A stretch of DNA of 64,000 nucleotides from an uncultured Bacilli bacterium (GCA_947627915.1 CANQXT010000001.1:2231-66230), one strand, 5' to 3'. Counted from the stretch's first letter, positions 32,489-64,000 are shown. Notes: generated by a model from the sequence alone, not told the origin. A program made the numbers and translations.

Positions 32489-32579
32489 TGGCGGAGCAGG
32501 AGAGATTTGAACTCTCGCGCCAGTTACCCGACCTACACCCTTAGCAGGGGCGCCTCTTCAGCCTCTTGAGTACTACTCC
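32489..32579 (-). tRNA. tRNA-Ser (anticodon GCU)
   Basis: The reverse complement folds as a class II tRNA. Acceptor stem GGAGTAG/CTGCTCC with one G-U pair and 3' GCCA, T-arm GAGAGTTCAAATCTCTC, anticodon stem CGCCC/GGGTG with loop CTGCTAA (anticodon GCT), and a long variable arm. 91 nt. Confidence 0.85.
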
Positions 32580-46600: not shown

Positions 46601-48844
46601 TTAAGTACGCTTTTTAAATAATCCTTTAATCATTAACATTTGATAAATAATTGCCAATAATATAATTACACTAATTAATAAGAATGGATATAAATAAATG
46701 CTATAATTAAATCGAATAATATTTATTGTATAACCTAAGTTATAAGATATTATTAAATTACCTAATATAATAGATATAGTAATTAAAAGATAAGTCATTA
46801 AAAGAGCGATTAATCCTAACATTAAAGATTTAAAAATAAATATTTTTTTTATAATTAAATCTTTTATACCTAAAGAATACAATGTCAATATTTTATCTTT
46901 ATTACTCTTAAATACAAAATGGATATAAACAATAATTATTAATATGTTTACCAAAGCGAATATACAACCTAAAAAAGTAAAAATTGTTTTCACTTGACTA
47001 ACTAGTAGATTAATATTAGCCATATCATCACTATATAATGTTTTAAATTCAATATGTTCTTTATCAATGGAAAATAAATTTTTTAATTGTATTTTACTAG
47101 CATTATTAACATATATCTCTTTAACTAGTTGATGATTTAAATAAACATTATTTAATAAATTTTTATTAATAATTGTTAAATTGCCAATATCAATTACCTC
47201 TAATTCATAACTTAAATCATTCATATTATATAAATCATATAAATCCCATAGTTGCAGTTTTATTTTATCACTTTTTATAATAGATTGTTCTTTTGCTAAA
47301 TCTTTACCAATAATTATTTGCTTTAAATTTATATTTTCATCACTAATATAATTAATAGTCATATTATCGTTGTACTTTAACCCTAAAGTCATATTGGTAT
47401 AACTATTGGAATTAAAATTAGATATTTCAAAAAAATTTGAATTAATATAATATCTATATAAATATTGCATTATAATATTTTCATCATCATTATTAAGCGT
47501 ATCTTTATTTTTTATATCTTCATCTACTAAATAAATACCTACTATCTTTAATCTTACATCATTAACTAAAATTTCTTGGTTTAATAAATCAGTATAATTA
47601 TTTATTTCTATAATTTGATTATCTACATTACTTACGCCTAGACGAATAATATAATCGGCAAGAAAGTTAGAAATCATTAACTCATTTGCCCCTTTGGGAA
47701 GATTACCTATATAATTAAATTTATTTTCTTTAAGATCAACAAATATATTGTTATCTTCCGAACTATTATTATAAAATTTATAGTATTCCGTTATATTATC
47801 CGTATTCTTAAAAGTAAAAGTAAATACTTCGTTATTAACTATTAAATTACTACCATAAGAATAATTATAATTTTGTAAAAAAGATTCTAAATAATTTCTT
47901 TCAGAAACATTAAAACCCATTGTATAACTGTTTCTATCATCATTTTTTACAATTGTAATATTATTTTGATGATTATTAACAAGTGCTTCAGCATATGATT
48001 CATTTAGATCAAATTGAGTAAACATTATAGAAAAACCAAAGAAAAACATAGCCATAGTCATTGTTATAACAGCTAGTAAATATAAATTATTTTTCGTTTT
48101 AAATACTTTTTTAGATAAAAATTTTATTAGATTATTACTATATTCATAATCCTTTAAATAATAGTTAGATTGTTCATTTACATTAGAATGATTAACTTCA
48201 ATTAAACCATCAACTATATTCAAAATAGAATCTGCATAAATAGTAGCTCTATTTTTATCGTGACTCGCAACAAGAACTAGCCTTTTTTTACTTATCTCTT
48301 TTAATAATTTCCAAACTTCGTCAGAATTCTTTTGATCTAAATTACCTGTTGGTTCATCTGCAAGTATTATTTGGGGATTTTTAACAATAGCTCTAGCAAT
48401 TGCCACTCTTGCTTTTTGGCCACCTGATAATTCAACTACTTGACGATTTTTTAAATTTTCAATATCTAAATCTTTTAAAACAACATCTATTTTTTCTTCA
48501 TCATCTTGATTTTGTAAATCTAATGCTATTTTAATATTTTCATAAACAGTTAAATTATCTAATAAGTTAAATTCTTGAAAAACAAAGCCTATAACTTCGT
48601 TACGATAATTTGCTATTTCTTCCCTATTTAAGTCATTCAAACAAATATTATTAAAGAAAATATCACCTGAATTAGGGTAGTCTAGACCTCCAACAAGATT
48701 TAGTAATGTTGATTTACCACTTCCACTTTTACCAATTAAACAGAATAAACCATTATCTGGTAATGTAACATTAACATTATCTAAAGCTTTAACTGATTCA
48801 TATCTAGTTTTATATATTTTACTAATATTCTTTAATTTTATCAT
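46601..48844 (-). CDS. Fused ABC transporter ATPase + FtsX/MacB-type permease
   Basis: 747 aa. GKSGSGKSTLLN, LSGGQKARVAIARA, ILADEPTGNLD, a large extracytoplasmic domain and a C-terminal TM bundle. Close paralog of its neighbour. Confidence 0.8.
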   Translation of the reverse strand: MIKLKNISKIYKTRYESVKALDNVNVTLPDNGLFCLIGKSGSGKSTLLNLVGGLDYPNSGDIFFNNICLNDLNREEIANYRNEVIGFVFQEFNLLDNLTVYENIKIALDLQNQDDEEKIDVVLKDLDIENLKNRQVVELSGGQKARVAIARAIVKNPQIILADEPTGNLDQKNSDEVWKLLKEISKKRLVLVASHDKNRATIYADSILNIVDGLIEVNHSNVNEQSNYYLKDYEYSNNLIKFLSKKVFKTKNNLYLLAVITMTMAMFFFGFSIMFTQFDLNESYAEALVNNHQNNITIVKNDDRNSYTMGFNVSERNYLESFLQNYNYSYGSNLIVNNEVFTFTFKNTDNITEYYKFYNNSSEDNNIFVDLKENKFNYIGNLPKGANELMISNFLADYIIRLGVSNVDNQIIEINNYTDLLNQEILVNDVRLKIVGIYLVDEDIKNKDTLNNDDENIIMQYLYRYYINSNFFEISNFNSNSYTNMTLGLKYNDNMTINYISDENINLKQIIIGKDLAKEQSIIKSDKIKLQLWDLYDLYNMNDLSYELEVIDIGNLTIINKNLLNNVYLNHQLVKEIYVNNASKIQLKNLFSIDKEHIEFKTLYSDDMANINLLVSQVKTIFTFLGCIFALVNILIIIVYIHFVFKSNKDKILTLYSLGIKDLIIKKIFIFKSLMLGLIALLMTYLLITISIILGNLIISYNLGYTINIIRFNYSIYLYPFLLISVIILLAIIYQMLMIKGLFKKRT

Positions 48845-48845
48845 T

Positions 48846-51359
48846 TTAATCTTTTTCCTTTTTTATTATTTCTATTGGATTTAATTTTAATAGTTTTTTT
48901 ATTGTTGCTGTTATAGAAATATACAGAATTATAACATAAGATAATATTGTAAGAGGATAAAGATACCAATTTTGATAAATCAAATTAATTTTAAAACCTA
49001 CTTTGTTAGATATATAGTGATTAATTAAATTAGAACTTGGCATTAAACAAATTATAACTATTAAGAAAGGAATTATTGTTAACATGCATATTAATAAACT
49101 ATATATTTTTATAATATCTTTATCTTTAAATCCTAAAGATTTCATAATTCCAAAATCTTTTTTATTAGCAAATAATATAAGTAAATTAATTAATACCATT
49201 AAAACTATTAAGAATCCAAATAAAATTATCGAACTATATTTAGCAAATATTGAAGTTTTATTAATCATATTAATCATTGAACTTATTTTATTAGATAATG
49301 CTGTAGATATAATATATTTATCATTATCTATATGATTATTTAATAGGTCAATTAATTTATCTTCATTTTTTTCAGTTATGGTAATCGTATTAACATTATT
49401 TATACCAATAAAGTAATTTTCTAAAACATTATCCGATACTAAAAAAGGATTAGAATGAAATTGGCCATTATCTATTGAAGAAACATAATTAACTACTTTT
49501 AAACTATATTTTTCCATTTCTTTAGCTTTTGAATAATCATAAGGATCAGCAATAAATAAATCAATATTATTACCTAAAATATTATTTTGTTCCATATACA
49601 ATAAAGCAAAATCCCTTTCTGATAATTCTTTTTGACTTTCTAACTTATTTTCAAAATCGTTATTAGATAATAGATTTAATAAATACTTATTAAGAACAAT
49701 TTCATTATCATTTAAAAGATATGAATTATTTAAATAATAAGGTACTGTCCAAGCACTACTATTATAATCAATAAACTTATATTCATTATCTATAAAAAGG
49801 TAACTTTTAAATAATTCCGTATTTAATGAATTGTTTTGTAGGATATCTAAAGTAGTAAAGAAATTTTCATTACAATAAATAACAAAAGTTTTATTATAAA
49901 AATATCTTAATTCTTCATCAAATACAACTGCATTATTACCAAATTCATCAAGTTCATAACTAATAGTTTTGTTTTTAAAAGCATCAATGTCATAATCTAA
50001 ATCATATATACCAGTTATTTTAAAAGCTGTATTAATTGATGGATCAAATTGAAGAAAAACATCATCATTAATAATCTCATCATAACTCTTAGGATAATAT
50101 TCATTTCCTTCTTTATCTATTAAACCATAATTTATTATAAATCTAGCAAATAAATTAGAGATTAATATTTCATTATTATTTTTAGGAAAACTACCTATGT
50201 ATTTTTTAGAAAAATTCTCTTCTTTAACTTCTATAAATGATTTAATAGGAGTCATTAATTTATTGCATATTATGTTATAGCTTTCTGATGGTTCTTTTAT
50301 AATTTTATTAGCAAATTGAATTACCATATTTTGATAATTGCCAGCAATAGTATTTTCAATTTCATACTTTATATCTTTTGTATCTAAATAATTCGTTATA
50401 TCATCTATTTCAGTTTGTTTAAATTGCCAACTATGATAATCACCTACTGAATTTCTAACTAAACTAATATCATAATCATTTTTAAAATTAAGTTTTAATG
50501 CTTCAATATGTGAATTATTAATATCAAACCTAGTTAAATTAATCACAAAAGCATATAAAAAGAAGAAGATTAAAAAAATTAGACTAATTAATGAATTACG
50601 AATAATATTAGATTTAAAAATATATTTACTTACTTTAAATAAATTATTAAATTTTATTTTGGTTTGTTTTACCGGGTATTTCACTATTTCTTTAGTATCT
50701 ATTATATCTTTACTAATTTGACCATTCTCAATAAAAATAATATCATCGGCATATTTTTTAGCATTATCTTCATCGTGGGTAACAACTATTATTAAATAAT
50801 CTTTACTTAATGTTTTAAAAATATTCCAAATTATTTCCGAATTAGTACTATCAAGATTACCTGTTGGTTCATCTGCTAAAATTATTCGAGGATTTTTGAC
50901 AATAGCTCTGGCAATTGCTACTCTTGCTTTTTGGCCACCAGATAATTCTTTAATTTTTCTAAATTTTAGTGTATCTATATCTAATTGTTTCATTAAAATA
51001 TCAATTTTAGTTGTATCTTTTTTATTTTGTAATTCTAATGCTAATTTTATATTATCATAAACAGTTAATTTTTCTAACAAATAATATTCTTGAAATATAA
51101 ATCCTACTACATTGTTACGATAATCAGCTAGTTCATTGGAACTCATTATGCTTAAATCTTTATTATTAAAAATTATTTTCCCTTTAGTAGGATAGTCTAA
51201 TCCTCCAATAAGATTAAGTAGTGTTGATTTACCACTTCCACTTTTACCTAATAAAACATATAGACCAGTCTTGGGAAATGACAAATTTATATTATCAGCT
51301 GCAGTAATATTTTCTGATTTATTAGTATATATTTTACTTACATTTTTTAGTCTAATCAT
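48846..51359 (-). CDS. Fused ABC transporter ATPase + FtsX/MacB-type permease
   Basis: 837 aa. The NBD is highly similar to 46601..48844, a tandem duplicate. C-terminal FtsX-like helices (GIMKSLGFKDKDIIKIY). Confidence 0.8.
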   Translation of the reverse strand: MIRLKNVSKIYTNKSENITAADNINLSFPKTGLYVLLGKSGSGKSTLLNLIGGLDYPTKGKIIFNNKDLSIMSSNELADYRNNVVGFIFQEYYLLEKLTVYDNIKLALELQNKKDTTKIDILMKQLDIDTLKFRKIKELSGGQKARVAIARAIVKNPRIILADEPTGNLDSTNSEIIWNIFKTLSKDYLIIVVTHDEDNAKKYADDIIFIENGQISKDIIDTKEIVKYPVKQTKIKFNNLFKVSKYIFKSNIIRNSLISLIFLIFFFLYAFVINLTRFDINNSHIEALKLNFKNDYDISLVRNSVGDYHSWQFKQTEIDDITNYLDTKDIKYEIENTIAGNYQNMVIQFANKIIKEPSESYNIICNKLMTPIKSFIEVKEENFSKKYIGSFPKNNNEILISNLFARFIINYGLIDKEGNEYYPKSYDEIINDDVFLQFDPSINTAFKITGIYDLDYDIDAFKNKTISYELDEFGNNAVVFDEELRYFYNKTFVIYCNENFFTTLDILQNNSLNTELFKSYLFIDNEYKFIDYNSSAWTVPYYLNNSYLLNDNEIVLNKYLLNLLSNNDFENKLESQKELSERDFALLYMEQNNILGNNIDLFIADPYDYSKAKEMEKYSLKVVNYVSSIDNGQFHSNPFLVSDNVLENYFIGINNVNTITITEKNEDKLIDLLNNHIDNDKYIISTALSNKISSMINMINKTSIFAKYSSIILFGFLIVLMVLINLLILFANKKDFGIMKSLGFKDKDIIKIYSLLICMLTIIPFLIVIICLMPSSNLINHYISNKVGFKINLIYQNWYLYPLTILSYVIILYISITATIKKLLKLNPIEIIKKEKD

Positions 51360-51664: not shown

Positions 51665-52870
51665 TTATTTTTCTAATAACCAATCTATAATATTTTTATG
51701 AATTATACCATTTTGAGAATAGTCTAATTTATCTGTTGATATAACATATTTAGGATAGTTATCTTGAATATTATCATAAGCACCAAATTCTCTTTCTTCT
51801 GTTTCTTTATTAGAAAGTTCAAATGTAACTTGATAATACTCTTTTTGATTATGCTTTGTAGCAATAAAGTCTATTTCTTTGCCATTATTATTTCCAACAC
51901 TTACACTATAACCTCTAAAAATAAGTTCATTAAAGACAATATTTTCTAAATAGGCACCATATTGAGTTTTTTTATTTATATTTAGAATTTGTCCTAATCC
52001 TAAATCAGTTAGATAATATTTATCTTTTCTTGACAATATCCTTTTGCCTCTTATATCATAAGTAGAAATTTTAGACATTAATAGAGCTTCTTCAGCATAG
52101 TCCAAATACTCATAGATTGTTTTCGAAGAAACAGGAATCTTTTCTGTTTCAAAAACACTCATCATATTAGTTGGTGAAAATGTTTGACTTGGGTTTGTTA
52201 CTAAATACTCCATAACTCTTTCAAATATTGCTACGTTTTTTATAGAGTTTCTTTTTACGATGTCTTTTAATACTATTGAATCAAAGAGATCTTTTAAATA
52301 TGTTTGTATACCTTCTATAGATGTAAAGGAAAACCTTTGAGGCATGCCTCCCCATAACAAATAATCATTAAATGCTTCTTCTATATCACTTTTTTCTTTT
52401 ATATTTTTATACTCTACAACTTCTTTAAAATTAAATGGTGCAATTTTAAAAGTCACATATCTTCCTGATAAAAGTGTAGCTAACTCAGAAGATAAGAGTT
52501 TTGAATTAGAACCAGTTACAAATATTGAAACATTTAAAGTTGATTTAAAAGAATTAATTGCTTTTTCCCATTCATCAACCATTTGAACTTCATCAAATAG
52601 TAGAAAATATTTTTCTTTATCTTTAATTTTTTCTTTAATGTACTTATTTAAATCTAAATAATTTTTTATAAAAGAAAATTCTACATTTTCAAAATTAATA
52701 TAAATAATATGATCTCTATCATTATTATTTTCTTTTAATTCTTCAATTATTTGCAACAACAATATAGATTTACCACATCTTCTAATTCCCGTGATAACTT
52801 TTATTATGTCCATATCATAAAATTCGCGTATTTTAGATAAATATGCTTCTCTTTTTATCATTTTTATCAC
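51665..52870 (-). CDS. AAA+ ATPase of the COG1373/DUF4143 family
   Basis: 401 aa. Walker A GIRRCGKS, Walker B LLFDEVQ and the C-terminal DUF4143-like region typical of this widespread uncharacterised ATPase family. Confidence 0.75.
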   Translation of the reverse strand: MIKMIKREAYLSKIREFYDMDIIKVITGIRRCGKSILLLQIIEELKENNNDRDHIIYINFENVEFSFIKNYLDLNKYIKEKIKDKEKYFLLFDEVQMVDEWEKAINSFKSTLNVSIFVTGSNSKLLSSELATLLSGRYVTFKIAPFNFKEVVEYKNIKEKSDIEEAFNDYLLWGGMPQRFSFTSIEGIQTYLKDLFDSIVLKDIVKRNSIKNVAIFERVMEYLVTNPSQTFSPTNMMSVFETEKIPVSSKTIYEYLDYAEEALLMSKISTYDIRGKRILSRKDKYYLTDLGLGQILNINKKTQYGAYLENIVFNELIFRGYSVSVGNNNGKEIDFIATKHNQKEYYQVTFELSNKETEEREFGAYDNIQDNYPKYVISTDKLDYSQNGIIHKNIIDWLLEK

Positions 52871-52980
52871 CTAAATTAATTATACAGTTAAAGTCCAAAA
52901 AAGTCAATATATTTTCTTATAGGAAAATATAATTAAAAATATTGCTTTATGTTTTCCTATTACTTATTATTTGCCATTCC

Positions 52981-53067
52981 TAGAAATATTCAAAATAATA
53001 CCGATACTAAGCATACTCACAAGTAACGAAAAGCTACTATAACTAAGAAAAGATAAAATAACTTTCT
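52981..53067. repeat. Degenerate duplicate of the ftsW 3' end (direct repeat with 54094..54180); att-like scar
   Basis: An 87-bp direct-repeat pair with about 85% identity by eye: tagaaatattcaaaataatacc... occurs at both 52981 and 54094. Copy B encodes the true FtsW C-terminus (...LSYGGSSLLVSMLSIGIILNISKNN*). Copy A would encode ...LSYSSFSLLVSMLSIGIILNISRNGK*. Confidence 0.6.
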
Positions 53068-53124
53068 AAACATTACCAATATAGTTGATTTTTAATATGT
53101 TGCACTTTCACAATAACTAAATAA

Positions 53125-53943
53125 TTATTTTATAATTGTAAGTACATATTTTATTAAACTGCCTTTTACGATTTTATCTTCTAGTTTATTAATAGAAAAA
53201 GTTTTATTACCTGCATAATTTAGAGATGCTCCACAATGATAAATTTCTTTTTGGTCTAATATAATGTATCTATCATGAAAATCATTACTATAAAATACCT
53301 TTAAATTATTATATTGTTTTTGATATTTATTTATATCTATTTCTTTTAATAAACTATTAGTTTTACATATTATAATTACATCAATTTTTATATTTCTTAT
53401 CATATCTAAAACAGTTTTATCTGCATAATTATCAATAATAATTATATTGTTATGTGCATCATTTAAAATATCAACTATTTTAGAATAAGCATCATATATT
53501 TGTCCATTAAAATAAATTTCATTTTCTTTTTTCTTTTCTTCAAATCTATTAAAAGAATCTTGCAACAATTTTATATCTTCATCATGCTTTATTACTAAAT
53601 TATTAATATATTTTTGCTCAATCAATTCATTAGAAATATACTTGCGCATTATTACAAAAGCACGCATAATGCTAACACTTACTTTTGTGGCAATCGGAGT
53701 TCTTAAAACACTTGCAAGCATCGCAACTCCTTGCTCGGTAAAAACATATGGATTTTTTCGAACTCCACCATATCCATTCAAACTTGAAGTCCCAATTTGA
53801 AACTTCAAGTTTGAAAATTCTTCGTTGGTTAATTGAAAATAAAAATCTTCAGGAAATCTATCAATATTTCTTTTTACTGACTGATTAATTCTCTTAGTGC
53901 CATTTACTCATCCATAAAGTTTTGCTAAATCAGAGTCTAGCAT
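53125..53943 (-). pseudogene. ORF6N-domain protein gene disrupted by an in-frame TGA near the N-terminus
   Basis: From ATG 53943 the frame reads [53 protein letters not shown]...NPYVFTEQGVAMLASVLRTPIATKVSVSIMRAF, a full ORF6N domain with a TGA stop (53908-53910) after 11 codons. The ORF track starts it at a TTG at 53808, inside the domain. Confidence 0.5.
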
Positions 53944-54082: not shown

Positions 54083-55168
54083 TTAATTATTTTTAGAAAT
54101 ATTCAAAATAATACCAATGCTAAGCATACTTACAAGTAAAGAAGAGCCGCCATAACTAAGGAAAGGTAAAGTAACTCCAGTCACAGGCACGAGACCAACA
54201 ACCACCGCTAGATTTAAAACCGCTTGAATAATTATTCCAAAAATTAATCCAAAACATAAATATTTTCCAAATAAATCATTTGTTTTTAAGGTAATTCTAA
54301 TACCTCTATAAAATAAGAAAAAGAAAGCACTTGTTACAATTAAAACTCCTAAAAAGCCTAATTCTTCACTAATAATTGAAAAGATAAAATCAGTTTGGGG
54401 TTCTGGTAAATAAAAATATTTTTGTCTGGATTTAAAAAAACCTTGACCAAGTATTCCGCCCGGTCCAATTGCATACAAGCTTTGAAGAATTTGGTAACCA
54501 CTTCCAAGGGGATCGCTCCAAGGATTTAAAAAACTAATTATACGCATCATTCGATAAGGTGCTGCAATAACAATCCCAATAATACCTACTAGACCAAGAA
54601 GACCTATTTTAACAAAGAAAGATACTTTTACTCCACTTATAAAAATCATTGCAATAAGAGTACAAACGATAACCATAGAGGTACCAAAATCAGGTTCTAA
54701 CATAATGATAAAAAAGAAAAAACCGATAACAAGTAAAATAGGTAAAACACCTTTAACAATACTTTTCATCTTTTTCTTATTATTTGTTAAATATTTAGCT
54801 ACAAAGATAATTAAACCAATTTTAGCAAGTTCACTAGGTTGAATTCCTAAAGAACCTATTCCAAACCAACTACGACTACCATTTCTAACACTACCTATAC
54901 CAGGTATTAAAACTAATACTAATAATATTGCACATATAAATAAAATAATATTAGCATATTTATAATATAAATGATAATCTATTTTTGAGGTAAAATAAAT
55001 GACGAATAATCCCATAAGAAAAAATATACTTTGCATTTTAACAAAATGAAAAGCATCATTAAATTTATATACTGCCCAAACATAACTAGCTGAGTATATC
55101 ATTATCAAACCAAAAACAATTAGAATGATAGTCATTATTAAAAAAGATCCATCAATTCTTTTTTTCAT
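54083..55168 (-). CDS. ftsW: SEDS-family cell-division protein FtsW/SpoVE (dcw cluster)
   Basis: 361 aa, 10 TM. FYLPEPQTDFIF and PFLSYGGSSLL motifs. Immediately downstream of mraY. Confidence 0.85.
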   Translation of the reverse strand: MKKRIDGSFLIMTIILIVFGLIMIYSASYVWAVYKFNDAFHFVKMQSIFFLMGLFVIYFTSKIDYHLYYKYANIILFICAILLVLVLIPGIGSVRNGSRSWFGIGSLGIQPSELAKIGLIIFVAKYLTNNKKKMKSIVKGVLPILLVIGFFFFIIMLEPDFGTSMVIVCTLIAMIFISGVKVSFFVKIGLLGLVGIIGIVIAAPYRMMRIISFLNPWSDPLGSGYQILQSLYAIGPGGILGQGFFKSRQKYFYLPEPQTDFIFSIISEELGFLGVLIVTSAFFFLFYRGIRITLKTNDLFGKYLCFGLIFGIIIQAVLNLAVVVGLVPVTGVTLPFLSYGGSSLLVSMLSIGIILNISKNN

Positions 55169-55195: not shown

Positions 55196-56188
55196 TTAAA
55201 TCCAAACACCATATGTTATAGCAACCATTGCTAAAAGTAATCCAACTACATAAAACAATTTAACAATATCACTTTCACACCAATGCAACTCTTCAAAATG
55301 ATGATGAAGAGGAGCTTTTAAAAATAATCTTTTATTAAAATTACGAATTAAAAACATTTGAATTAAACTACTTAATGTTTCAATTACAAAGACACCGCCA
55401 ATAATTGCTAAAGATAATTCGTGTCTTGTTAATATAGCAATAGTTGCTAAAGCACCTCCTAATGCTAAAGAACCAAAATCACCCATAAATACTTTAGCAG
55501 GATGACTATTATAAACTAAGAAACCAAGTAATGATCCAACTATTAAGAAACAAAAAATAGCAATTTCTTGATAACCTTCTAACCAACCACAATTCCACGA
55601 AATAATACCATAAGCTACAAAAGCAATCGCTGAAAGACCAGCACATAAACCATCTAACCCATCAGTTATATTAACTGCATTCGAAGTACCTACTAATAAA
55701 AATAAGATAAAGATACCAAATGTCCATCCTAAAGGTATTATAATATTTAATGCTGTAAATTCAAGAGTTGATTTACCTCCACTCTTCATAAAGAAATAAA
55801 AGAATACTAAAGCAATAATCATTTGAATTAAGAATTTAGTAACAATACTTAAACCTTTATTATTATTTAATTTAACCTTTAATAAATCATCTATTCCTCC
55901 TAAAAGAGCATATGCTAAAAAGACAAATATCAGAATAAATAAATTATAACTAAAATTAATACTTTTATTAATATATAACAAAATTAAAGAAAAAATGGTT
56001 GGAAAAATAAATATTATCCCTCCCATTGTTGGAGTTCCTTCTTTTTCTAAATGACGTTCATTAATTGTTCTACTAACTTTTTGACCTATATTAAACTTTT
56101 TTAATAATGGTATAAAAATAAGACCACTGGCAATTGCCAAAACAAAGCCTAACATCATAGCCATAGCAGCTTTTGCTAAAATTAACAT
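55196..56188 (-). CDS. mraY: Phospho-N-acetylmuramoyl-pentapeptide transferase
   Basis: 330 aa, 10 TM. NAVNITDGLDGLCAGLS motif and DxxD. Confidence 0.85.
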   Translation of the reverse strand: MLILAKAAMAMMLGFVLAIASGLIFIPLLKKFNIGQKVSRTINERHLEKEGTPTMGGIIFIFPTIFSLILLYINKSINFSYNLFILIFVFLAYALLGGIDDLLKVKLNNNKGLSIVTKFLIQMIIALVFFYFFMKSGGKSTLEFTALNIIIPLGWTFGIFILFLLVGTSNAVNITDGLDGLCAGLSAIAFVAYGIISWNCGWLEGYQEIAIFCFLIVGSLLGFLVYNSHPAKVFMGDFGSLALGGALATIAILTRHELSLAIIGGVFVIETLSSLIQMFLIRNFNKRLFLKAPLHHHFEELHWCESDIVKLFYVVGLLLAMVAITYGVWI

Positions 56189-56268: not shown

Positions 56269-58188
56269 TTAGTTTAACAACAAAGTAATCGTTGTATCAG
56301 CACTTTGAAAAGTATTAGGACTAGGAGACATATAAATAACTTTATCTCCACTACCGGTATATTTAATTTTAAATTCTTTTAATTTTTTAGTAGCTTCTTC
56401 TTTAGTCATTCCCACAACATCTGGTAAAACATAATAATGAACATCTAAATATTGATATTCTTTTAACATACCACCACTTTGTTCTTTTATTTTTAACGTT
56501 TCAATAGTAGATAACATAATATTTCTTGCAATAGGAGCAGATACTGTTCCTCCATATTGGGTTACCCCTTTAGGATTATCCACAGCCACATAGATAACTG
56601 CTTCAGGATCATTAGCAGGTAAAAAGCCAATAAATGAAAGAATATAATTACCAACCATATATTTACCATTACTTACTTTTTGAGCCGTTCCGGTTTTTCC
56701 ACCAACGCGATAATTCTCAATATAAGCATTTCTACCCGTCCCATTAGCCACGACACTCTCTAAAGCAAAACGAACCATTTGGGAAGTTTCTTTACTTATT
56801 ACTTCTCTTTTTACACGAGGTTTATTTTCATAAATAATTGCGGAACTACTTTCATCTATAATTGCATCAACTACATAAGGAGTATTTAAAAGTCCACCAT
56901 TAATCGCGGCAGAGACTGCTGTTACTTGTTGAATAGGAGTAACACTTATACCTTGACCAAAGGCAGTTGTTGCTAACTCTACAGGTCCCATTTTATCTAA
57001 CGAAAACAATATTCCATTACCTTCACCATTTAAATCAATACCTGTTTTAGAACCAAAGCCAAATTTTTTTATGTAATTCATTAATGTTTCTTTACCTAAC
57101 TTTTCGCCTAAAGTAACAAAACCGGGGTTACAAGAATTTTCTACTACTTCTAAATATGTTTGAGCTCCGTGACCACCATGTTTCCAACAATGAAGAGTTG
57201 AACCTTCTACTGTTATTGCTCCAGAATCATAATATGTATCCTTAAATAAATCAACTACCCCTTCTTCCAAACTACTTGCTAATGTAATTATTTTGAAAGT
57301 TGAACCTGGTTCATAAGTTTTCCATATTGGTAAATTACGATTTATAACTTCTTCACTATAACTTTGATAATCATTTGGATCAAATGATGGTAAACTACCC
57401 ATTGCAAGTACTTTCCCTGTTTTAGGATCCATAACAATACTTAAAGCATTATCTGCGTTATATTTATCCATTGCATTATTAAGTTCATTATAGATTGCTT
57501 CCATTAATTCTAAATCTAATGTTAGTTTCAAAGTCATTCCTTTAGATGGGGCAATATAACTATCAGGTACCTCTAATTTATTACCTTTACCATCACTATA
57601 ATATTTTAAAGAACCATTAACACCCGTCAAATATTTATCATAAGTAAGTTCTAACCCCGAAAGACCTTGATTATCACTACCAACAAAGCCAATAATATGA
57701 GCAAGCATTTCCCCATATGGGTAATATCTTTTGGAATCAACAATTAAATAAACACCATCATAACCTAATTTTTCAATTTTTTCAGCTGTTTTGCTATCTA
57801 AGTCCATTCCTTTTCGAATTATTTCCATACTACTATTTTTTGCCACATATTTATAAACATCATCAAAATCACAATTTAATATTTCTGCTATATCTTTCGA
57901 TACCTTTTCCTTGTTTTCAGCTTTTATCTGTCCAGGTACCACATATATTGTAGTTGTAACAATACTAGTAGCTAATACTTTACCATTTCGATCAACTATA
58001 TCTCCTCTTGGAGCATTAATAGTCATTCTTCTACTCCATAAATCTTCAGTTATTTTAGATAATTTATTATAAGAAAATACTTGAATATAAAACACTTTTC
58101 CTATTATTAATAAAAGTATAATTATAATAATTAATAATATAAATCTAATTCTTGTATGTATATCATTAAAAAACATATTATCCCTCAT
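56269..58188 (-). CDS. Class B penicillin-binding protein (SpoVD/PBP2x-like transpeptidase with C-terminal PASTA)
   Basis: 639 aa. N-terminal TM, dimerisation domain and transpeptidase motifs STFK (EPGSTFKI), SCN (ENSCNPGF) and KTGT (GGKTGTAQ). PASTA domain at the C-terminus. Confidence 0.85.
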   Translation of the reverse strand: MRDNMFFNDIHTRIRFILLIIIIILLLIIGKVFYIQVFSYNKLSKITEDLWSRRMTINAPRGDIVDRNGKVLATSIVTTTIYVVPGQIKAENKEKVSKDIAEILNCDFDDVYKYVAKNSSMEIIRKGMDLDSKTAEKIEKLGYDGVYLIVDSKRYYPYGEMLAHIIGFVGSDNQGLSGLELTYDKYLTGVNGSLKYYSDGKGNKLEVPDSYIAPSKGMTLKLTLDLELMEAIYNELNNAMDKYNADNALSIVMDPKTGKVLAMGSLPSFDPNDYQSYSEEVINRNLPIWKTYEPGSTFKIITLASSLEEGVVDLFKDTYYDSGAITVEGSTLHCWKHGGHGAQTYLEVVENSCNPGFVTLGEKLGKETLMNYIKKFGFGSKTGIDLNGEGNGILFSLDKMGPVELATTAFGQGISVTPIQQVTAVSAAINGGLLNTPYVVDAIIDESSSAIIYENKPRVKREVISKETSQMVRFALESVVANGTGRNAYIENYRVGGKTGTAQKVSNGKYMVGNYILSFIGFLPANDPEAVIYVAVDNPKGVTQYGGTVSAPIARNIMLSTIETLKIKEQSGGMLKEYQYLDVHYYVLPDVVGMTKEEATKKLKEFKIKYTGSGDKVIYMSPSPNTFQSADTTITLLLN

Positions 58189-58212
58189 AAAATAATATGT
58201 TTTATTTAGTTA

Positions 58213-58848
58213 TTATTGAATTAATTTTTTTAAATTAATTATTTTAAAATTAACTATTACTAATAATAAATTTAAAATAATATTTAAAATTAAGTTTAAT
58301 TTTAATAATGCTATAACTATCAAACTAGATACAATTAATAATAATATTATAATAATCTTTTTAGTAAATAAATTAGTAAAAGTAACTAACATTATATATA
58401 TAGTTATAAAATATAAAATACTTATAATTATATCTCTAATATTTATCCTTATAAAATAGCTTAAAAATTTTGCTATTATTAAACTAGTACATAATTTAAA
58501 TATAATCAAAAAAAGAATAAAAACAATTAATTTACTAGAAAGCCATTTATATTTATTTATTCTTATAGCTATATTATTAAAACCATTCTCTAAATCATAA
58601 AAATAAAATTTATAACCTAAATATAAAAAGAATAAATAATTATAAATATAATATAAATTATAAGTACCATTTAATAATTTAAAATTTGGATAATTAATTA
58701 ATCCCAAAAAATTATCATAAGTTATTGGTATATAATCTAATTTTAAAAAAAGAATAATAAGATAAATAATAAGTATTAAAAAATAAAAAAGTATCCAATA
58801 TTTATTTTTTTTAATGACTTCATTAAGTATTAATAAATTTAATTTCAT
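58213..58848 (-). CDS. Polytopic membrane protein (likely permease partner of the adjacent ABC ATPase)
   Basis: 211 aa, about 6 hydrophobic helices. Adjacent to the ATPase gene and embedded in the dcw cluster. Confidence 0.4.
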   Translation of the reverse strand: MKLNLLILNEVIKKNKYWILFYFLILIIYLIILFLKLDYIPITYDNFLGLINYPNFKLLNGTYNLYYIYNYLFFLYLGYKFYFYDLENGFNNIAIRINKYKWLSSKLIVFILFLIIFKLCTSLIIAKFLSYFIRINIRDIIISILYFITIYIMLVTFTNLFTKKIIIILLLIVSSLIVIALLKLNLILNIILNLLLVIVNFKIINLKKLIQ

Positions 58849-58866
58849 ATCTTTACTCCATTTATG

Positions 58867-59499
58867 TTATTCAGAAATAATTTGGCCATTATCAAAGTAA
58901 AATATTTGATCACAAAGTTTATTTAAATCTTCTTTAATATGACTACTAATAATAATTATTTTATCTTTATTTTTTTCTTTTAATAAATAATTAATTATCT
59001 TATTTACTGATTCATTATCAATACCATTAAATATTTCATCTAATAAAATAATATTTTGATCTTCCATTATAGCTTGAGCAAGTCCTAATTTTTGCTTCAT
59101 TCCTAAAGAATACTTACTATATTTTTTATCTTTAAATTCTATTAAATTAACTAAATCTAAAGTTTCTAATATTTCTTTATCTCCAATCTTATTATTAATT
59201 TTAGCAAGTAATTTTAAATTTTCATAACCAGTTAAATCAGGAAAAAATGATGGTTTTTCAATCATAACTCCTAAAGATTTTGGGAATTCTTTTAAATTAT
59301 TAAAATTAACTCCATCATATAATACTTCACCTTTAGTAGGATTATATAACCCACTTAAAATTTTTAAAAAGACTGATTTACCAGAACCATTTCGGCCATA
59401 TAAACCATATATATTACCACTTTTAAAATGTAAATTAATATTATTAAGAACTGGAATACCATTAAATTCTTTGCTTAAATTATTTACTACTATTTCCAT
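58867..59499 (-). CDS. ABC transporter ATP-binding protein (short, ABC-2 type)
   Basis: 210 aa. Walker A GRNGSGKSVFLKILSGL, signature-like YSLGMKQKLGLAQA and Walker B IILLDEIFNGID. Confidence 0.8.
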   Translation of the reverse strand: MEIVVNNLSKEFNGIPVLNNINLHFKSGNIYGLYGRNGSGKSVFLKILSGLYNPTKGEVLYDGVNFNNLKEFPKSLGVMIEKPSFFPDLTGYENLKLLAKINNKIGDKEILETLDLVNLIEFKDKKYSKYSLGMKQKLGLAQAIMEDQNIILLDEIFNGIDNESVNKIINYLLKEKNKDKIIIISSHIKEDLNKLCDQIFYFDNGQIISE

Positions 59500-60405
59500 T
59501 TATTCATTCTCCTCTATATCCATAATTAGTTTTTCTTTATCTTTATAAGCTAAATAAACCATCATAAACGTTATAATCATTATTGTAAATGGAACTATCA
59601 TCATTGATAAAATACCATAACTATCATTGCAGAACAAAAATTCATTAATAATATTAAATAATATACTAATATCAGTTTTTAATAAGTAAGTACAAATAAT
59701 TCCTCCAAAAAATACTTCTAATACTATCTCAAGACCAATAATACTTAAAAATGATAAAATTATTGTAATAAAAAGATTATGATGATATCTACATACTAAA
59801 AGTGTAATATTAATATAGATTAAAGAACAAAAGAAGATATTTAAAACATATAAAATTAAAAATAAATAAGGATTTTTTAATGTTTCAAAAGACCAAACAC
59901 TAGCATTAGAAGTAATTAAATTAACTGAACTTAAATTTTTAGTATAAATTAAAGGTATAATAATTAAACTTAAAGCAATAAATAATAATATTAAAGACGA
60001 TATATAAGAATTAAGAAACATTTTCTTTTTTATCTTTTTAAAATTACTTCGAGGTAATTCAGTTATTAGTATTCTATTTTTTAAATAACTACAATTAAAA
60101 ACAGATGCTGTAATAATTGTCAAAATTATAAAGATAAACATATATTTTGTATTACTAATATTTATAATATTTTCCTGAAATAATTCAAAAAATTCTATTT
60201 TATTATCTTTATTTAAGATTGATATACAAAACTCTTCTTTTTCTGTACCTATATAATTTGTACTTAAACATTCATTTTGAAGATTAGTTATAGCCTCATT
60301 ATTATTCTTTTTTATTTGAATTTCTTTTACACTTATAAATATTACTAAAAGTAAAGATATAATAAGACTAATTATTAAAAATATTTTTGTTTTTTTATTA
60401 ATCAT
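59500..60405 (-). CDS. Polytopic membrane protein (ABC-2-type permease-like)
   Basis: 301 aa, 6 TM. Directly abuts the ATPase gene. Confidence 0.45.
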   Translation of the reverse strand: MINKKTKIFLIISLIISLLLVIFISVKEIQIKKNNNEAITNLQNECLSTNYIGTEKEEFCISILNKDNKIEFFELFQENIINISNTKYMFIFIILTIITASVFNCSYLKNRILITELPRSNFKKIKKKMFLNSYISSLILLFIALSLIIIPLIYTKNLSSVNLITSNASVWSFETLKNPYLFLILYVLNIFFCSLIYINITLLVCRYHHNLFITIILSFLSIIGLEIVLEVFFGGIICTYLLKTDISILFNIINEFLFCNDSYGILSMMIVPFTIMIITFMMVYLAYKDKEKLIMDIEENE

Positions 60406-60407
60406 AT

Positions 60408-62513
60408 TTATTTTCCCTTATCTAAAGTAACCGTTATATCCATATCACTATTAATACTAGTTCCTGGAGGTATACTTTGTTCTTTAACATAACCATAACC
60501 ATTTATATTAAAGTTTATACCTAATAAACTAGCATAAGTTTTCACTTCGTTTAAACTCCATCCAGTCATATCTTCTAAAATATAATCTTTATTATTACTA
60601 ACTAAGAAAACTTTATTATTTTCAAATACTTCCGTATTCTTTAGAGGATATTGATTAATTACATACTTACCTTGACCTAAAGTAATTACATTTAATTTTT
60701 GATTAGTAAGTAAATCTTTAGTAGTTTGAACTTCGCTACTAATATAATTATCTAAAGTAACTATTTTCTTTTCTAAATTATCTAAAGTATTTTCTATTCC
60801 TAAATAAGATACAATATCATCAACTGCTTTTGTAAGTTCTTTAGCAATAGGAGTTGCTGATGTGGCACTTAAACTTTTTGTAGCAACATATACAATATAT
60901 TTAGGATCCTCTTCAGGAAAGATACCAGCAAAACTACGAATATAATCGTAATCACCATATAAGTATCCTCCTCCATTAGGATTAGCAATTTGTGCAGTTC
61001 CTGTTTTACCTATCATATTGGTTTTTGTAGGTTGCCAATAAGTAGATAAACCTTCATAGACAACATTATGCATTAAATGACGCATATAATCCATTGTTTC
61101 TTTAGAATATACTTTTTCTACTTCTGTTCTTTTGCCTTCATAAATAACTTCATCTTGCGAATTAACTATTTTAGAAACGATATATGGTTTAATTGTCGTA
61201 CCATCATTAGTAAGAGTTGATAGAGCTTGTAACATTTGAATAGGGGTAACAGTTATACCTTGGCCAAAGGAAGCATTAGCTATTTCCGTTAAATATTGTA
61301 TCTTTACTTTACCAGAAACTTCATTAGCAAGTTCAATACCAGTCTTTTTACTAAAACCTAATTTTTTATAATAATCGGTTAATTTTTCTGCTTTTAACTC
61401 TAAACCTAGAATTGTGGCAGCGACATTGGAAGAATAAGCAAAACCAGTATCAAAAGTTATTTCTCCCCAACCTTTTCGATTAAAATCTCTAATAGTAGCA
61501 TTAGCTACTGGAATACTACCAGATAAATAAGTTTTATTACCATCATATAAACCTTCTTCAATACTTGACGCAAATGAGAATGTTTTCATAACACTTCCTG
61601 GTTCATATTCATAACTAACTAAAGGATTCATATAATTTTTTAACGAACTTAAATTATTAGGATCAAAATTAGGATATGTCGATGATGCTACTATAGCCCC
61701 TGTTTTTGCATCCATTACAGTAAATATCATCCAATCCATATTATAATTTTTAGATAAATTATGAGTTAAGGTTTCTGCAAATAATTGAATATTACTATCG
61801 ATTGTTAAATAAATATTATTACCATCAGTCGAAGATTCTTCAATTATTTCTGCTCCCGGTAAAGTATAACCATAAGCATCCGTTTGATATGTTATTTTAC
61901 CATCAATACCAGATAATTCATCATCATAATATGATTCTAATCCTAATTCACCTACTATATCACCATCTTCATTTTTTCTAGCATAACCTACTATATATGA
62001 AGCAAAGGAACCCATATTATATGTTCTTTTTTGACTTTTAATAAAATCTATACCTGGCATTTCTAAAGCCTCAATTTTATTTTTAAGAGATTCTGAAATA
62101 TCTTTACCTCCAACAAATTCAACTTGATAAACATTTTTTTTACTTAATTGTTCAATAGCATGATCATAATCAATACCAATCATTTCATTTAACATTTTAG
62201 CAGTTTTATTAATATCAACAACATGTTCTGGATGTCTTGGATCTGTTGTTCTTCTTGAATCTAGATACGCTATAATTGTATAGGAATTAACTGTAGTAGC
62301 TAAAGTATTACCATCTTTATCGTAAATATTACCTCTTTTAGCATAAATAATATCTTCTTTAGTATTACGATTTTCAGCAAATTCATGTAAATCTATATCA
62401 TCTACTTTTCTACTCAATGATACATAACTTAATTTAATAATTATGGCAACAAAAAAGAAGCAGACAATAAAAATTAAAATTGGTGGTATTTTTACAGTAA
62501 CTCCCTTTTTCAT
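60408..62513 (-). CDS. Class B penicillin-binding protein PBP2B/FtsI (two C-terminal PASTA domains)
   Basis: 701 aa. SxxK (EPGSVMKT), SSN (AYSSNVAA), KTGT (GKTGTAQI), then two PASTA repeats. Follows ftsL. Confidence 0.85.
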   Translation of the reverse strand: MKKGVTVKIPPILIFIVCFFFVAIIIKLSYVSLSRKVDDIDLHEFAENRNTKEDIIYAKRGNIYDKDGNTLATTVNSYTIIAYLDSRRTTDPRHPEHVVDINKTAKMLNEMIGIDYDHAIEQLSKKNVYQVEFVGGKDISESLKNKIEALEMPGIDFIKSQKRTYNMGSFASYIVGYARKNEDGDIVGELGLESYYDDELSGIDGKITYQTDAYGYTLPGAEIIEESSTDGNNIYLTIDSNIQLFAETLTHNLSKNYNMDWMIFTVMDAKTGAIVASSTYPNFDPNNLSSLKNYMNPLVSYEYEPGSVMKTFSFASSIEEGLYDGNKTYLSGSIPVANATIRDFNRKGWGEITFDTGFAYSSNVAATILGLELKAEKLTDYYKKLGFSKKTGIELANEVSGKVKIQYLTEIANASFGQGITVTPIQMLQALSTLTNDGTTIKPYIVSKIVNSQDEVIYEGKRTEVEKVYSKETMDYMRHLMHNVVYEGLSTYWQPTKTNMIGKTGTAQIANPNGGGYLYGDYDYIRSFAGIFPEEDPKYIVYVATKSLSATSATPIAKELTKAVDDIVSYLGIENTLDNLEKKIVTLDNYISSEVQTTKDLLTNQKLNVITLGQGKYVINQYPLKNTEVFENNKVFLVSNNKDYILEDMTGWSLNEVKTYASLLGINFNINGYGYVKEQSIPPGTSINSDMDITVTLDKGK

Positions 62514-62524
62514 ATGTACTCCTT

Positions 62525-62818
62525 CTATTTTGTTACATTAACTATATTGTCACTATTATATGAAAGACCATAACGCTCAGCTATTTTTTGAATATTTTCC
62601 ATACTTACAAGTTCATCAATTTGCATTTCTAAACTAGCATTATTATCTTCTTTCTTTTCTATTTTACTTTTTAATTTTTCATTTTTAATATTAGTTTCAC
62701 TTAATAAAGATTTAGAAAAAATATTAATAGTTGGAATAGCTAGTAATAATAATAACAACACAACATACATCATTTTTTCTCCTTTTAGAAATCTTACTTT
62801 ATATTTTTTCATAATCAT
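62525..62818 (-). CDS. ftsL: Cell-division protein FtsL-like (single TM + coiled coil)
   Basis: 97 aa. TM helix VVLLLLLAIPTINIF followed by a coiled coil. Lies between rsmH and the PBP. Confidence 0.55.
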   Translation of the reverse strand: MIMKKYKVRFLKGEKMMYVVLLLLLLAIPTINIFSKSLLSETNIKNEKLKSKIEKKEDNNASLEMQIDELVSMENIQKIAERYGLSYNSDNIVNVTK

Positions 62819-63768
62819 TATATCCTTTCCACTACTCTTAATTTAGCACTATGACTACGAGTATTTTCTTCTAATTCTTTATTACTAGGTGTAAGAGGTT
62901 TTTTATTTATTATTTTTATTATTGGTTCATATTCTTTAGGAATATTTGGTAAACCTTTAACTAATTCATTAACCTCTGATTTTTCTTTAAATATCTTTTT
63001 AACAATTTTATCTTCTAAAGAATGAAAAGTAATAACTGCTATTCTTCCTTTACTATTTAATAATTCAATCGCATCAGGTAAAACTTTTTCTAATACTTCT
63101 AATTCTTTATTTACTTCTATTCTTAAAGCTTGGAATATTTTTCTTTCAGGATGATTTTTATAAAAGTAATTAGCTCCAACAGATGTTTTAATTACTTCAA
63201 CTAATTCCATTGTAGTATTAATTTCTTTTTGTAATCTTTTCTTCCCAATTTCTTTACTAATATTCTTGGATAATTTCTCTTCCCCATATCTAAAGAATAT
63301 ATCTGTTAATTTTTCTTCACTATACTTATTAATAATTTCTTTAGCAGTTAATTTATTATCTAAATTCATTCGCATATCTAATGGAGCATCTTTCATAAAA
63401 GAAAAACCTCTTTTTTCATCATCTATTTGTGGTGAAGAAAAACCTAAATCAAAAATTATTCCATCAACTTTAAATATATTTAAATCATTTAATATTTTGT
63501 TTAGATTAACAAAATTATCTTGGATTATAGTGAAATTATTGCTTATTTTTTCTAATTCTTTTTGAGAATATTCAATTGCTTCTTTATCTTGATCGATAGC
63601 TATGAGTTGACCTCTTTTTAATCTTTTTAAAATTTCTCTACTCATTCCCCCATAACCTAAAGTTGCATCAACATAAATACCATCTTCTTTTATGTTAAGG
63701 GAAGCAATTATTTCATTAAGCATAACACTATAATGTTTCATAATTACCCTCAAATAAATTTTCAGCAA
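62818..63768 (-). CDS. rsmH: 16S rRNA (cytosine1402-N4)-methyltransferase RsmH (MraW)
   Basis: 316 aa. GIYVDATLGYGGMS SAM-binding motif and DLGFSSPQID. Conserved position after mraZ. Confidence 0.9.
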   Translation of the reverse strand: MLKIYLRVIMKHYSVMLNEIIASLNIKEDGIYVDATLGYGGMSREILKRLKRGQLIAIDQDKEAIEYSQKELEKISNNFTIIQDNFVNLNKILNDLNIFKVDGIIFDLGFSSPQIDDEKRGFSFMKDAPLDMRMNLDNKLTAKEIINKYSEEKLTDIFFRYGEEKLSKNISKEIGKKRLQKEINTTMELVEVIKTSVGANYFYKNHPERKIFQALRIEVNKELEVLEKVLPDAIELLNSKGRIAVITFHSLEDKIVKKIFKEKSEVNELVKGLPNIPKEYEPIIKIINKKPLTPSNKELEENTRSHSAKLRVVERI

Positions 63769-64000
63769 TGCTTTCTAATTTATCACTATTTTCAGTCATA
63801 AAGTTTTCATAAGCATCTTTATCCCATATTTCAATACGGTCATTTACGCCGATTATAACGCATTCCTTTGTTAAACCGGCGTAGCTAACCAATGGGGAGG
63901 TAATATTGATTCGACCCATTTTGTCGAATTCACATACAGAGGCACCAGCAAAAAATGATCTTATAAATGTTCGGGCATCTTTTTTAGTAAAAGGAAGAGT
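63728..64000 (-). CDS. mraZ: Transcriptional regulator MraZ (C-terminal part; N-terminus beyond the window end)
   Basis: The frame stays open upstream of the annotated Met to position 64000 (...TLPFTKKDARTFIRSFFAGASVCEFDKMGRINI...). The second DxxGR motif is present. Confidence 0.8.
   Translation of the reverse strand, partial: TLPFTKKDARTFIRSFFAGASVCEFDKMGRINITSPLVSYAGLTKECVIIGVNDRIEIWDKDAYENFMTENSDKLESIAENLFEGNYETL

Follow-up and report, generated by a model that had tools for sequence, protein, structure and literature searches.

The lantibiotic-protection transporters of the LanFEG type (NisFEG, EpiFEG/GdmFEG with the accessory GdmH) combine a short ATP-binding cassette (ABC) ATPase, reduced to its nucleotide-binding domain (NBD), with two or three small proteins of ~210-250 residues having six transmembrane (TM) helices, and their operons follow the gene order F-E-G. 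The phenol-soluble-modulin exporter PmtABCD of Staphylococcus aureus belongs to the type-V exporters and has a double role, the export of amphipathic peptides and the protection of the cell that produces them. The lactococcin 972 operon pairs a Sec-dependent, lipid II-binding bacteriocin with an ABC immunity transporter, the permease of which is one large protein. BceAB represents Firmicute ABC systems tied to cell-wall-active peptides, in which BceB, a permease of ~650 residues with an FtsX domain and a large extracellular domain, is accompanied by the two-component system BceRS. The subject of this analysis is a three-gene ABC cassette located between two penicillin-binding protein (PBP) genes, pbpB and spoVD, in the division and cell wall (dcw) cluster of an uncultured Bacilli bacterium of the rabbit gut. 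The DNA analyzed is a single stretch of 64,000 nucleotides (GCA_947627915.1 CANQXT010000001.1:2231-66230), hereafter the window. By analogy with the systems above, the cassette is best read as working like a LanFEG/Pmt-type immunity exporter, without being filed in either of those families. It is probably an accessory module for the efflux of a peptide or toxin, and its link to the PBPs would be incidental.

The evidence for an insertion comes from the closest genomes (L012, L014, L068, and L069), in which the pbpB stop and the spoVD start lie 28-155 bp apart and the cassette is missing from the junction; the SpoVD proteins of L012 and L068 share 91% and 92% identity, respectively, with that of the window. 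The conserved spoVD leader, AAAACATATTATTT-ATGAGGGATAATATG, is kept in the window directly downstream of the last cassette gene, and the C-terminal codons of pbpB are remodelled (...TLDKGK* in the window versus ...TLSK*). A blastn comparison matches window positions 60411-58201 to the metagenome contig L092 at 84.7% nucleotide identity over exactly this span and with unrelated flanks, so that the cassette unit can be delimited as three open reading frames (ORFs) and their ribosome-binding site. Judged from these alignments, the segment 58201..60411 (minus strand) is an insertion and not part of the conserved dcw cluster, as an earlier note drawn from the sequence alone had proposed. The exact protein encoded by the first cassette gene occurs on contigs from six rabbit-gut-type samples, in the same gene order and with neighbors that are 100% identical, and the cassette is fixed in the species. 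In L092 (223-1117), which has the most similar copy of the cassette, the homologue of this first protein is split into ORFs of 61 and 250 residues, at a coverage of ~2x, and either a sequencing error or a pseudogene is possible.

Gene content at this junction also varies farther afield. In other, more distant relatives, unrelated genes lie between pbpB and spoVD, coding for surface-repeat proteins, a lipase-like protein, or a CobW-like GTPase, and loci with changed content at this place are found in L025 (5967-10001), L026, L037, L038, L052, and L075. In L013, L015, L016, and L024 (upstream of 10001), spoVD-mraY-spoVE has wholly different upstream neighbors and is detached from mraZ-rsmH-ftsL-pbpB, while the mraZ-pbpB block is downstream or inverted in L039, L033, and L077. 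From these gene orders, the pbpB|spoVD boundary is a gene-content hot spot in the lineage. An IS200-like transposase ORF lies nearby in L015.

The cassette encodes, on the minus strand, M301 (59500..60405), a putative type-V ABC transmembrane subunit of 301 residues with six TM helices, an NBD-only ATPase of 210 residues (58867..59499), and M211 (58213..58848), a small polytopic membrane protein of 211 residues. The ATPase is, by its motifs, a bona fide ABC NBD: it matches PF00005 above the gathering score (E=2.9e-31, 109.3 bits versus a cutoff of 25), and its catalytic motifs are complete (Walker A GRNGSGKS, signature YSLGMKQ, Walker B IILLDE, and H187). The best curated families are those of lantibiotic protection (TIGR03740, 159.3 bits versus a cutoff of 309.75), DrrA, GldA, CcmA, and PmtC (105 bits), all of them below their cutoffs, as is TIGR03608 (97.6 bits, cutoff 254.85). 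M301 and M211 match no Pfam family and no NCBIfam family at E<=0.01, including the MutE and MutG models, and PADLOC reports nothing for these two membrane proteins. M211 possesses at least five hydrophobic segments and aligns with the last gene of related modules found elsewhere (L007, L009, L011, L068, L077, L095, and L096), with R96 and K101 invariant. Compared with L092, dN/dS is 0.13 for the ATPase, 0.21 for M301, and 0.30 for M211, the reference genes mraY and spoVD giving 0.06-0.09; all three cassette genes are intact and, on these ratios, under purifying selection.

The AlphaFold (AF2) model of M301 was obtained from a 133-sequence alignment (pLDDT 95.5, pTM 0.91), which replaced a shallow 7-sequence alignment that gave a pLDDT of 59.8 and no meaningful Foldseek match. 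The model exhibits six TM helices. Between TM1 and TM2, a helical insert on the extracellular side bears the conserved Cys46 and Cys60; TM5 and TM6 are separated by a non-helical segment, and the C-terminus forms a conserved amphipathic tail. Foldseek analysis against the PDB returns weak hits, of which ranks 1-14 are all type-V (ABC-2 fold) subunits, namely PmtD, NosY, ABCG2, ABCG5/8, and other ABCG proteins, with ABCA1 and ABCA4 lower in the list. The model thus assigns M301 weakly to the type-V exporters, by structure and not by sequence. The ABC-2 label of the earlier note finds no backing at the sequence level, since neither membrane protein matches a Pfam or NCBIfam family, and is retained as a weak but consistent fold match. 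Together, the fold class and the affinities of the ATPase point to a peptide or drug exporter.

M301 belongs to a family, here named M300, that an exhaustive profile search extends to 536 representative clusters at E<=1e-3, of which 162 reach E<=1e-30 (clusters at 50% identity), while word-indexed homologue searches retrieve 7 relatives of M301, a single one of M211, and 2 of the secreted protein described below. Nearly all matches are full-length proteins of ~300 residues, and the members checked are unnamed or 'hypothetical' and originate from metagenome-assembled genomes (MAGs) of Bacilli. There is no Pfam model for the family, one of 133 members having a marginal ABC2_membrane_2 match (E=0.0074); a profile search against PDB sequences identifies no relative, and tblastn of M301 against plasmids and phages returns nothing. 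In the alignment of the 133 members, C46, C60, R119, N199, Y287, and E291 are at least 90% conserved. The traits of the family are a length of ~300 residues, six TM helices, paired cysteines in the TM1-TM2 insert, R119, N199, and a C-terminal Y-K-x-K-E-K-L-I tail, all of which M301 displays, and M300 is a candidate for the definition of a new membrane-protein family.

Members of the M300 family recur in a five-gene module, in which a protein of 120-158 residues with a Sec-type signal peptide, and with a CxxC motif in most copies, is followed by the M300 subunit, an ATPase of ~211 residues, and membrane proteins of ~250 (M250) and ~210 residues (M210, the counterpart of M211). The cassette of the window keeps M300, the ATPase, and M210, and has neither the secreted-protein gene nor M250. 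Eight metagenome loci stem from a narrower family alignment. Modules are found by MazEF (L009), after nusG (L093) and the spoVA operon (L096), before eno (L098), and in the intervals between gap and pgk (L095) and between tlyA-like and rpsL genes (L101-L105); others sit inside serine-recombinase elements that split spoVD (L068, L069, and L077). Of the homologues sampled independently, in searches that did not start from spoVD, none is located in a dcw cluster. Reduced forms comprise M300, ATPase, and M210 in the window and in L092, M286, ATPase, and M171 in L068, M314, ATPase, and M249 in L101/L103, and the secreted protein, M293, M219, and ATPase in L011. Since M250 is missing from the reduced forms of the window, L092, L068, and L011, each of which retains M300 and M210, the latter two would be the core membrane pair. 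L101-L105 are an exception, as M249, an M250 protein, is kept there and no ORF matching M210 is found after it. By hhalign, the M250 family is remotely paralogous to M300 (probability 87%, E=3.7e-6), and an R-x4-K motif after TM2 is common to the M300, M250, and M210 families. At the same tlyA-like...rpsL locus, a gene for a secreted protein of 134 residues is present in L102/L105 (~6400-7000 of L105) and not in L101/L103, a presence/absence polymorphism that, by analogy, is typical of toxin/immunity loci.

Set against the described systems, the module resembles LanFEG by its short NBD-only ATPase and small membrane subunits, by TIGR03740 being the best curated match of that ATPase, and by the presumed role of expelling a membrane-active peptide; the ATPase-M250-M210 order of the full module mirrors F-E-G. 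It differs in that the linked product is a Sec-signal protein of ~110 residues and not a leader-peptide lantibiotic, in that lantibiotic biosynthesis genes are absent (the neighbors of the cassette being PBP genes, mraY, and spoVE, in a window that is partly annotated beyond them), and in the extra M300 subunit with its Cys-containing extracellular insert. PmtABCD (PDB 6xjh, 9q1y) provides the best structural match to the M301 model, although at a Foldseek E of ~0.1 and a TM-score of 0.3, without any relationship at the sequence level, and with a different gene complement, Pmt having two ATPase genes and two permease genes. With lactococcin 972, the module shares a Sec-secreted protein, there a toxin, beside an ABC system, there for immunity. 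However, the TIGR03608 score stays below the cutoff, the secreted proteins of the relatives miss the Lactococcin_972 Pfam model, and the window contains no secreted-protein gene. As for BceAB, the permeases of the cassette, with 301 and 211 residues, have none of the features of BceB, and no BceRS-like pair accompanies them. Membership in LanFEG, lactococcin 972, or BceAB was rejected for the cassette, as it fails the curated tests of each.

The elements that split spoVD in relatives are more striking than the cassette of the window. Among 80 genome loci fetched around spoVD, 18 have the gene split by one or two elements: L068 (9998-15962), L069 (773-11681), and L077 (5456-13087), and further L070-L072, L074-L076, L078-L080, L083, and L087-L091, with two elements each in L069, L089, and L090. 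Each element carries a large serine recombinase (Resolvase, Recombinase, and Zn_ribbon_recom domains) directly beside one spoVD junction, and an ORF of ~60 residues resembling a recombination directionality factor (RDF) lies beside the recombinase gene in the elements examined (L068, L069, and L077, as well as L076 and L083 by tblastn). Using the intact SpoVD of the window as reference, site 1 falls at residues ~296-302, at the catalytic S296-T-F-K, site 2 at residues ~345-364, right after the SXN motif S352-C-N, and site 3 at residues ~417-422, after AFGQG in the AFGQG...SVTP region. As the three break sites coincide with codons of the transpeptidase motifs, the recombinases appear to target the most conserved DNA of spoVD. 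The site-2 elements of L068, L069, and L077 measure ~4-5.7 kb and share a terminal inverted repeat, CAAGAGATAC/GTATCTCTTG, which surrounds an AAC(C) core present as a duplicate at the two junctions (L068 11050-11075 and 15078-15105; L077 6500-6530 and 12195-12235; L069 6135-6160); these ends are candidate attL/attR half-sites. The cargo of these three elements is essentially the ABC module, with the secreted protein in L069 and L077. Sporulation genes interrupted by intervening elements have been described, with skin in sigK, SPbeta in spsM, and gin in gerE (PMC5595907, PMC4191935, PMC5025042), and the spoVD elements of the relatives resemble them by splitting a mother-cell sporulation gene with a serine recombinase and terminal inverted repeats. 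Unlike skin or gin, the cassette of the window lacks both a recombinase and att-like ends and is situated outside the coding sequence of spoVD. Among the papers returned by full-text literature searches, none describes spoVD as the target of an intervening element.

These observations are most readily accommodated if the cassette entered the pbpB-spoVD spacer, of roughly 30 bp, in the lineage of this species as a cut-down, 'orphan immunity' version of the five-gene module, which moves around the genomes of uncultured gut Bacilli, sometimes as the sole cargo of serine-recombinase elements. Two copies of the 210-residue ATPase would power a membrane unit made of the 301- and 211-residue proteins, in an ABC-2/type-V architecture, and the substrate of this pump, an amphipathic peptide or a small protein, would be expelled from the cell surface or the membrane. 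Co-transcription with the PBP genes would then follow from the landing place, without functional coupling to peptidoglycan synthesis. The incidental link to the PBPs and the efflux role are the part of this account that we hold to be probable. That the full module combines a toxin, the secreted protein, with an ABC pump dedicated to immunity, of which the window would keep an orphan immunity cassette, is a serious possibility, somewhat short of an even chance. In its favor, the secreted partner does not need the ABC pump for its export as it has its own Sec-type signal peptide, modules lacking this partner are still under purifying selection (window versus L092), small mobile elements carry the module and nothing else as cargo, and the coming and going of the partner gene among close relatives suggests an immunity role. 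More tentatively, and on balance doubtfully, the module may be an as yet undescribed system of uncultured gut Bacilli that couples a protein toxin to ABC immunity and spreads as the sole cargo of miniature elements with serine recombinases that target the active-site codons of spoVD. The window copy would then be a domesticated orphan-immunity derivative that owes its expression to the transcript of pbpB-spoVD and might thus be made in the mother cell during sporulation.

Several observations weigh against this account. Toxin activity, substrate, and immunity are predictions for every member of the module, and the Pfam scan of the secreted proteins of the relatives reports no bacteriocin family and nothing at E<=1 beyond noise. 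The fold matches of M301 are weak (Foldseek E at least 0.1, with 0.12-1.2 for the top hits, and TM-scores 0.3-0.45), the ABC2_membrane families of Pfam give zero hits for M301 and M211, and the hhalign comparison of M210 with M300 or M250 is not significant. The family could also be near-universal but positionally variable, and hence more housekeeping-like. Four module copies lie at or in spoVD, which makes a link to sporulation possible, although three of them came only from loci fetched around spoVD. Finally, no integration scars or repeats account for the arrival of the cassette, since neither target-site duplications nor terminal repeats, direct or inverted, were seen around it beyond AT-rich chance matches. 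Its base composition does not help either: the GC content dips to 12-22% over the cassette, mainly at codon positions 1 and 2 of genes for proteins rich in Ile, Leu, Asn, Lys, Phe, and Tyr, and the GC3 is little lower than around it (0.07-0.10 versus 0.11-0.16), so that the dip was rejected as a signal of foreign DNA, being mainly an effect of amino-acid composition.

The main rival, which we regard as unlikely, is a general pump of the LanFEG/BcrAB/PmtABCD type for resistance to antimicrobial peptides or drugs, directed at exogenous lantibiotics, bacitracin-like compounds, or host peptides rather than at the secreted protein of the module. The curated families closest to the ATPase (lantibiotic protection, DrrA, and PmtC), the fold class that M301 shares with PmtD, and the absence of a secreted-protein gene from the cassette would all suit such a pump. 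However, every curated cutoff is missed, the permeases match neither MutE nor MutG, and the near-constant linkage to a secreted protein in the other copies suggests a dedicated partner. The same family scores bear on the first of three functions that the earlier note had offered, a transporter for peptide immunity, which turns out to fit best: TIGR03740 is the top match of the ATPase, albeit below its cutoff, and the fuller modules carry the Sec-signal protein upstream. Its second proposal, a BceAB-like sensing transporter, does not agree with a cassette devoid of FtsX domains and of a large permease, with no two-component system among the neighbors. This result also counts against a wider, improbable explanation in which the cassette would be integrated with the divisome or cell-wall machinery and co-regulated with the PBPs by design, either as such a sensor or as an exporter of lipid II or another precursor, the latter being the third proposal of the note. 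The tight, operon-like packing between the two PBP genes with no terminator, and the presence of related modules inside spoVD elements too, would be expected from this integration. Yet the same junction lacks the cassette in the closest genomes and holds unrelated genes in other relatives, and zero independently sampled homologues lie in a dcw context; a lipid II-related exporter or a functional tie to the PBPs finds no support on these grounds.

Two further explanations start from the mobility and the spread of the module. The cassette might be the decayed remnant of a spoVD-targeting serine-recombinase element that has lost its recombinase, given that the L068, L069, and L077 elements carry the same module family and that L068 has the same three-gene layout. 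We give this origin hardly any credence, and it was rejected because the inverted-repeat motif of the spoVD elements does not occur near the cassette: in the window, CAAGAGATAC is absent within 15 kb of it. Moreover, the cassette lies upstream of an intact spoVD, at none of the three intragenic sites, there is no remnant of a recombinase or RDF, and the ATPase is nearer to those of the chromosomal modules L092 (89% identity) and L007 (69%) than to that of L068 (57%). Scarcely more plausible is a housekeeping exporter of the lineage, for ions, lipids, or a surface polymer for example, with an unstable position in small AT-rich genomes. The size of the family, with its 536 clusters, the location of modules among core genes, and purifying selection would fit such a function, but the make-up of the module varies (three, four, or five genes, with or without the secreted partner), modules also travel on mobile elements, and divergence is very fast, M211 having a single detectable homologue by word-indexed search. 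The two outcomes that the earlier note had named as speaking against its proposals are not seen: the insertion is not uniform in the related genomes, and no characterized family unrelated to the envelope matches the cassette.

The presence of an ABC pump between two PBP genes should, therefore, not be taken to reveal a new transporter linked to the divisome or to lipid II. What is new is a sizeable membrane-protein family with a high-confidence predicted fold and neither a Pfam model nor a solved relative, an ABC system of modular make-up, in which a secreted partner joins as many as three paralogous membrane subunits, and the use of an ABC module as cargo of very small recombinase elements. 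If the toxin/immunity reading is true, these modules would offer a new handle on interference competition among uncultured gut Bacilli with reduced genomes.

Regarding the surrounding dcw region, every gene from 54 kb to the end of the window is on the minus strand, and ORFs as well as domain and family scans bear out the gene order and coordinates first reported. The 3' part of mraZ (63728..64000) is an ORF cut by the window end, and the full gene on the identical contig L001 (145 residues) matches PF02381 MraZ. It is followed by rsmH (62818..63768), encoding the 16S rRNA m4C1402 methyltransferase (TIGR00006, 371.9 bits versus a cutoff of 154.3), and by a ftsL/divIC-like gene (62525..62818), the product of which matches PF04977 DivIC slightly under the gathering score (E=2.5e-6, 27.7 bits versus 28.9) and the place of which, between rsmH and a PBP gene, suits ftsL. 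The next gene (60408..62513) encodes a class-B PBP of 701 residues, similar to PBP2B/PBP2X, with PBP_dimer, Transpeptidase, and two PASTA domains and with the motifs SVMK307, SSN361, and KTG503 all found; its best NCBIfam family is PBP2X, and it scores under every curated NCBIfam cutoff. Beyond the cassette, spoVD (56269..58188) is uninterrupted and encodes a sporulation class-B PBP with one PASTA domain (TIGR02214, 710 bits versus a cutoff of 688) and the motifs STFK296, SCN352, and KTG498 all found. Its true start is probably the second ATG, at 58176 (635 residues), as a GAGGG ribosome-binding site lies between the two in-frame ATGs; the gene call on L001 also begins there. The cluster ends with mraY (55196..56188; TIGR00445, 296.5 bits versus a cutoff of 192) and the SEDS-protein gene spoVE/ftsW (54083..55168; TIGR02615, 450.1 bits versus 448.8, and TIGR02614, 405.7 versus 337.5).

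In Bacillus subtilis, the dcw order is mraZ-mraW-ftsL-pbpB-spoVD-murE-mraY-murD-spoVE-.... The genes present in the window are collinear with it, the division PBP with two PASTA domains preceding the one-PASTA SpoVD, so that the cluster cannot be called rearranged, as had been proposed. Calling both PBPs divisome proteins does not hold either, the downstream one being the sporulation protein SpoVD. The cluster is indeed truncated within the window: unlike that of B. subtilis, it has no murE, murD, murG, murB, divIB, ftsA, or ftsZ, and a check at the level of motifs, covering all frames of the 64 kb, detects neither the Mur-ligase P-loop nor a signature of FtsZ or MurG. The two clusters also differ in that the mraZ-pbpB and spoVD-mraY-spoVE blocks are separable in the lineage of the window. 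From the gene orders of the relatives, a dcw layout without mur genes is the norm of the lineage and not peculiar to this stretch. The cassette genes and their neighbors are packed as in an operon, with gaps of 2 nt, 0 nt, 18 nt, and 24-36 nt, and nothing resembling a terminator is seen within or beside the cassette; co-transcription with the PBP genes is plausible for these two reasons, and the earlier suggestion of it stands as far as position is concerned, transcription itself being a prediction. A promoter scan returned 80 sites versus 80 expected.

The nearest species-representative genomes are 'uncultured Bacilli' MAGs labelled Lapin-xxx, and more distant relatives are labelled Acholeplasma sp. 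CAG:878, Clostridium sp. CAG:628, Erysipelotrichaceae, and Tenericutes. The window has a GC content of 23%. Relatives encode Spo0A, SpoVA, and YutH, and the lineage is therefore regarded as spore-forming. Downstream of spoVE, an AAA_14/DUF4143 ATPase of 401 residues and a 227-residue ORF with an ORF6N fragment (51665-53808, minus strand) look accessory; an ORF of 430 residues in the first spoVD element of L069 may resemble this ATPase. Across positions 1-64000, no Rfam family reaches its gathering score, and the sole tRNA found is tRNA-Ser(GCT) (32489-32579). Lastly, two large neighboring ORFs of 747 and 837 residues (46601-51359, minus strand) lie a few kb downstream of the dcw genes, and the 837-residue product has fused ABC_tran and FtsX domains according to the annotation of the identical contig, as in an ABC system of the MacB/BceAB style.

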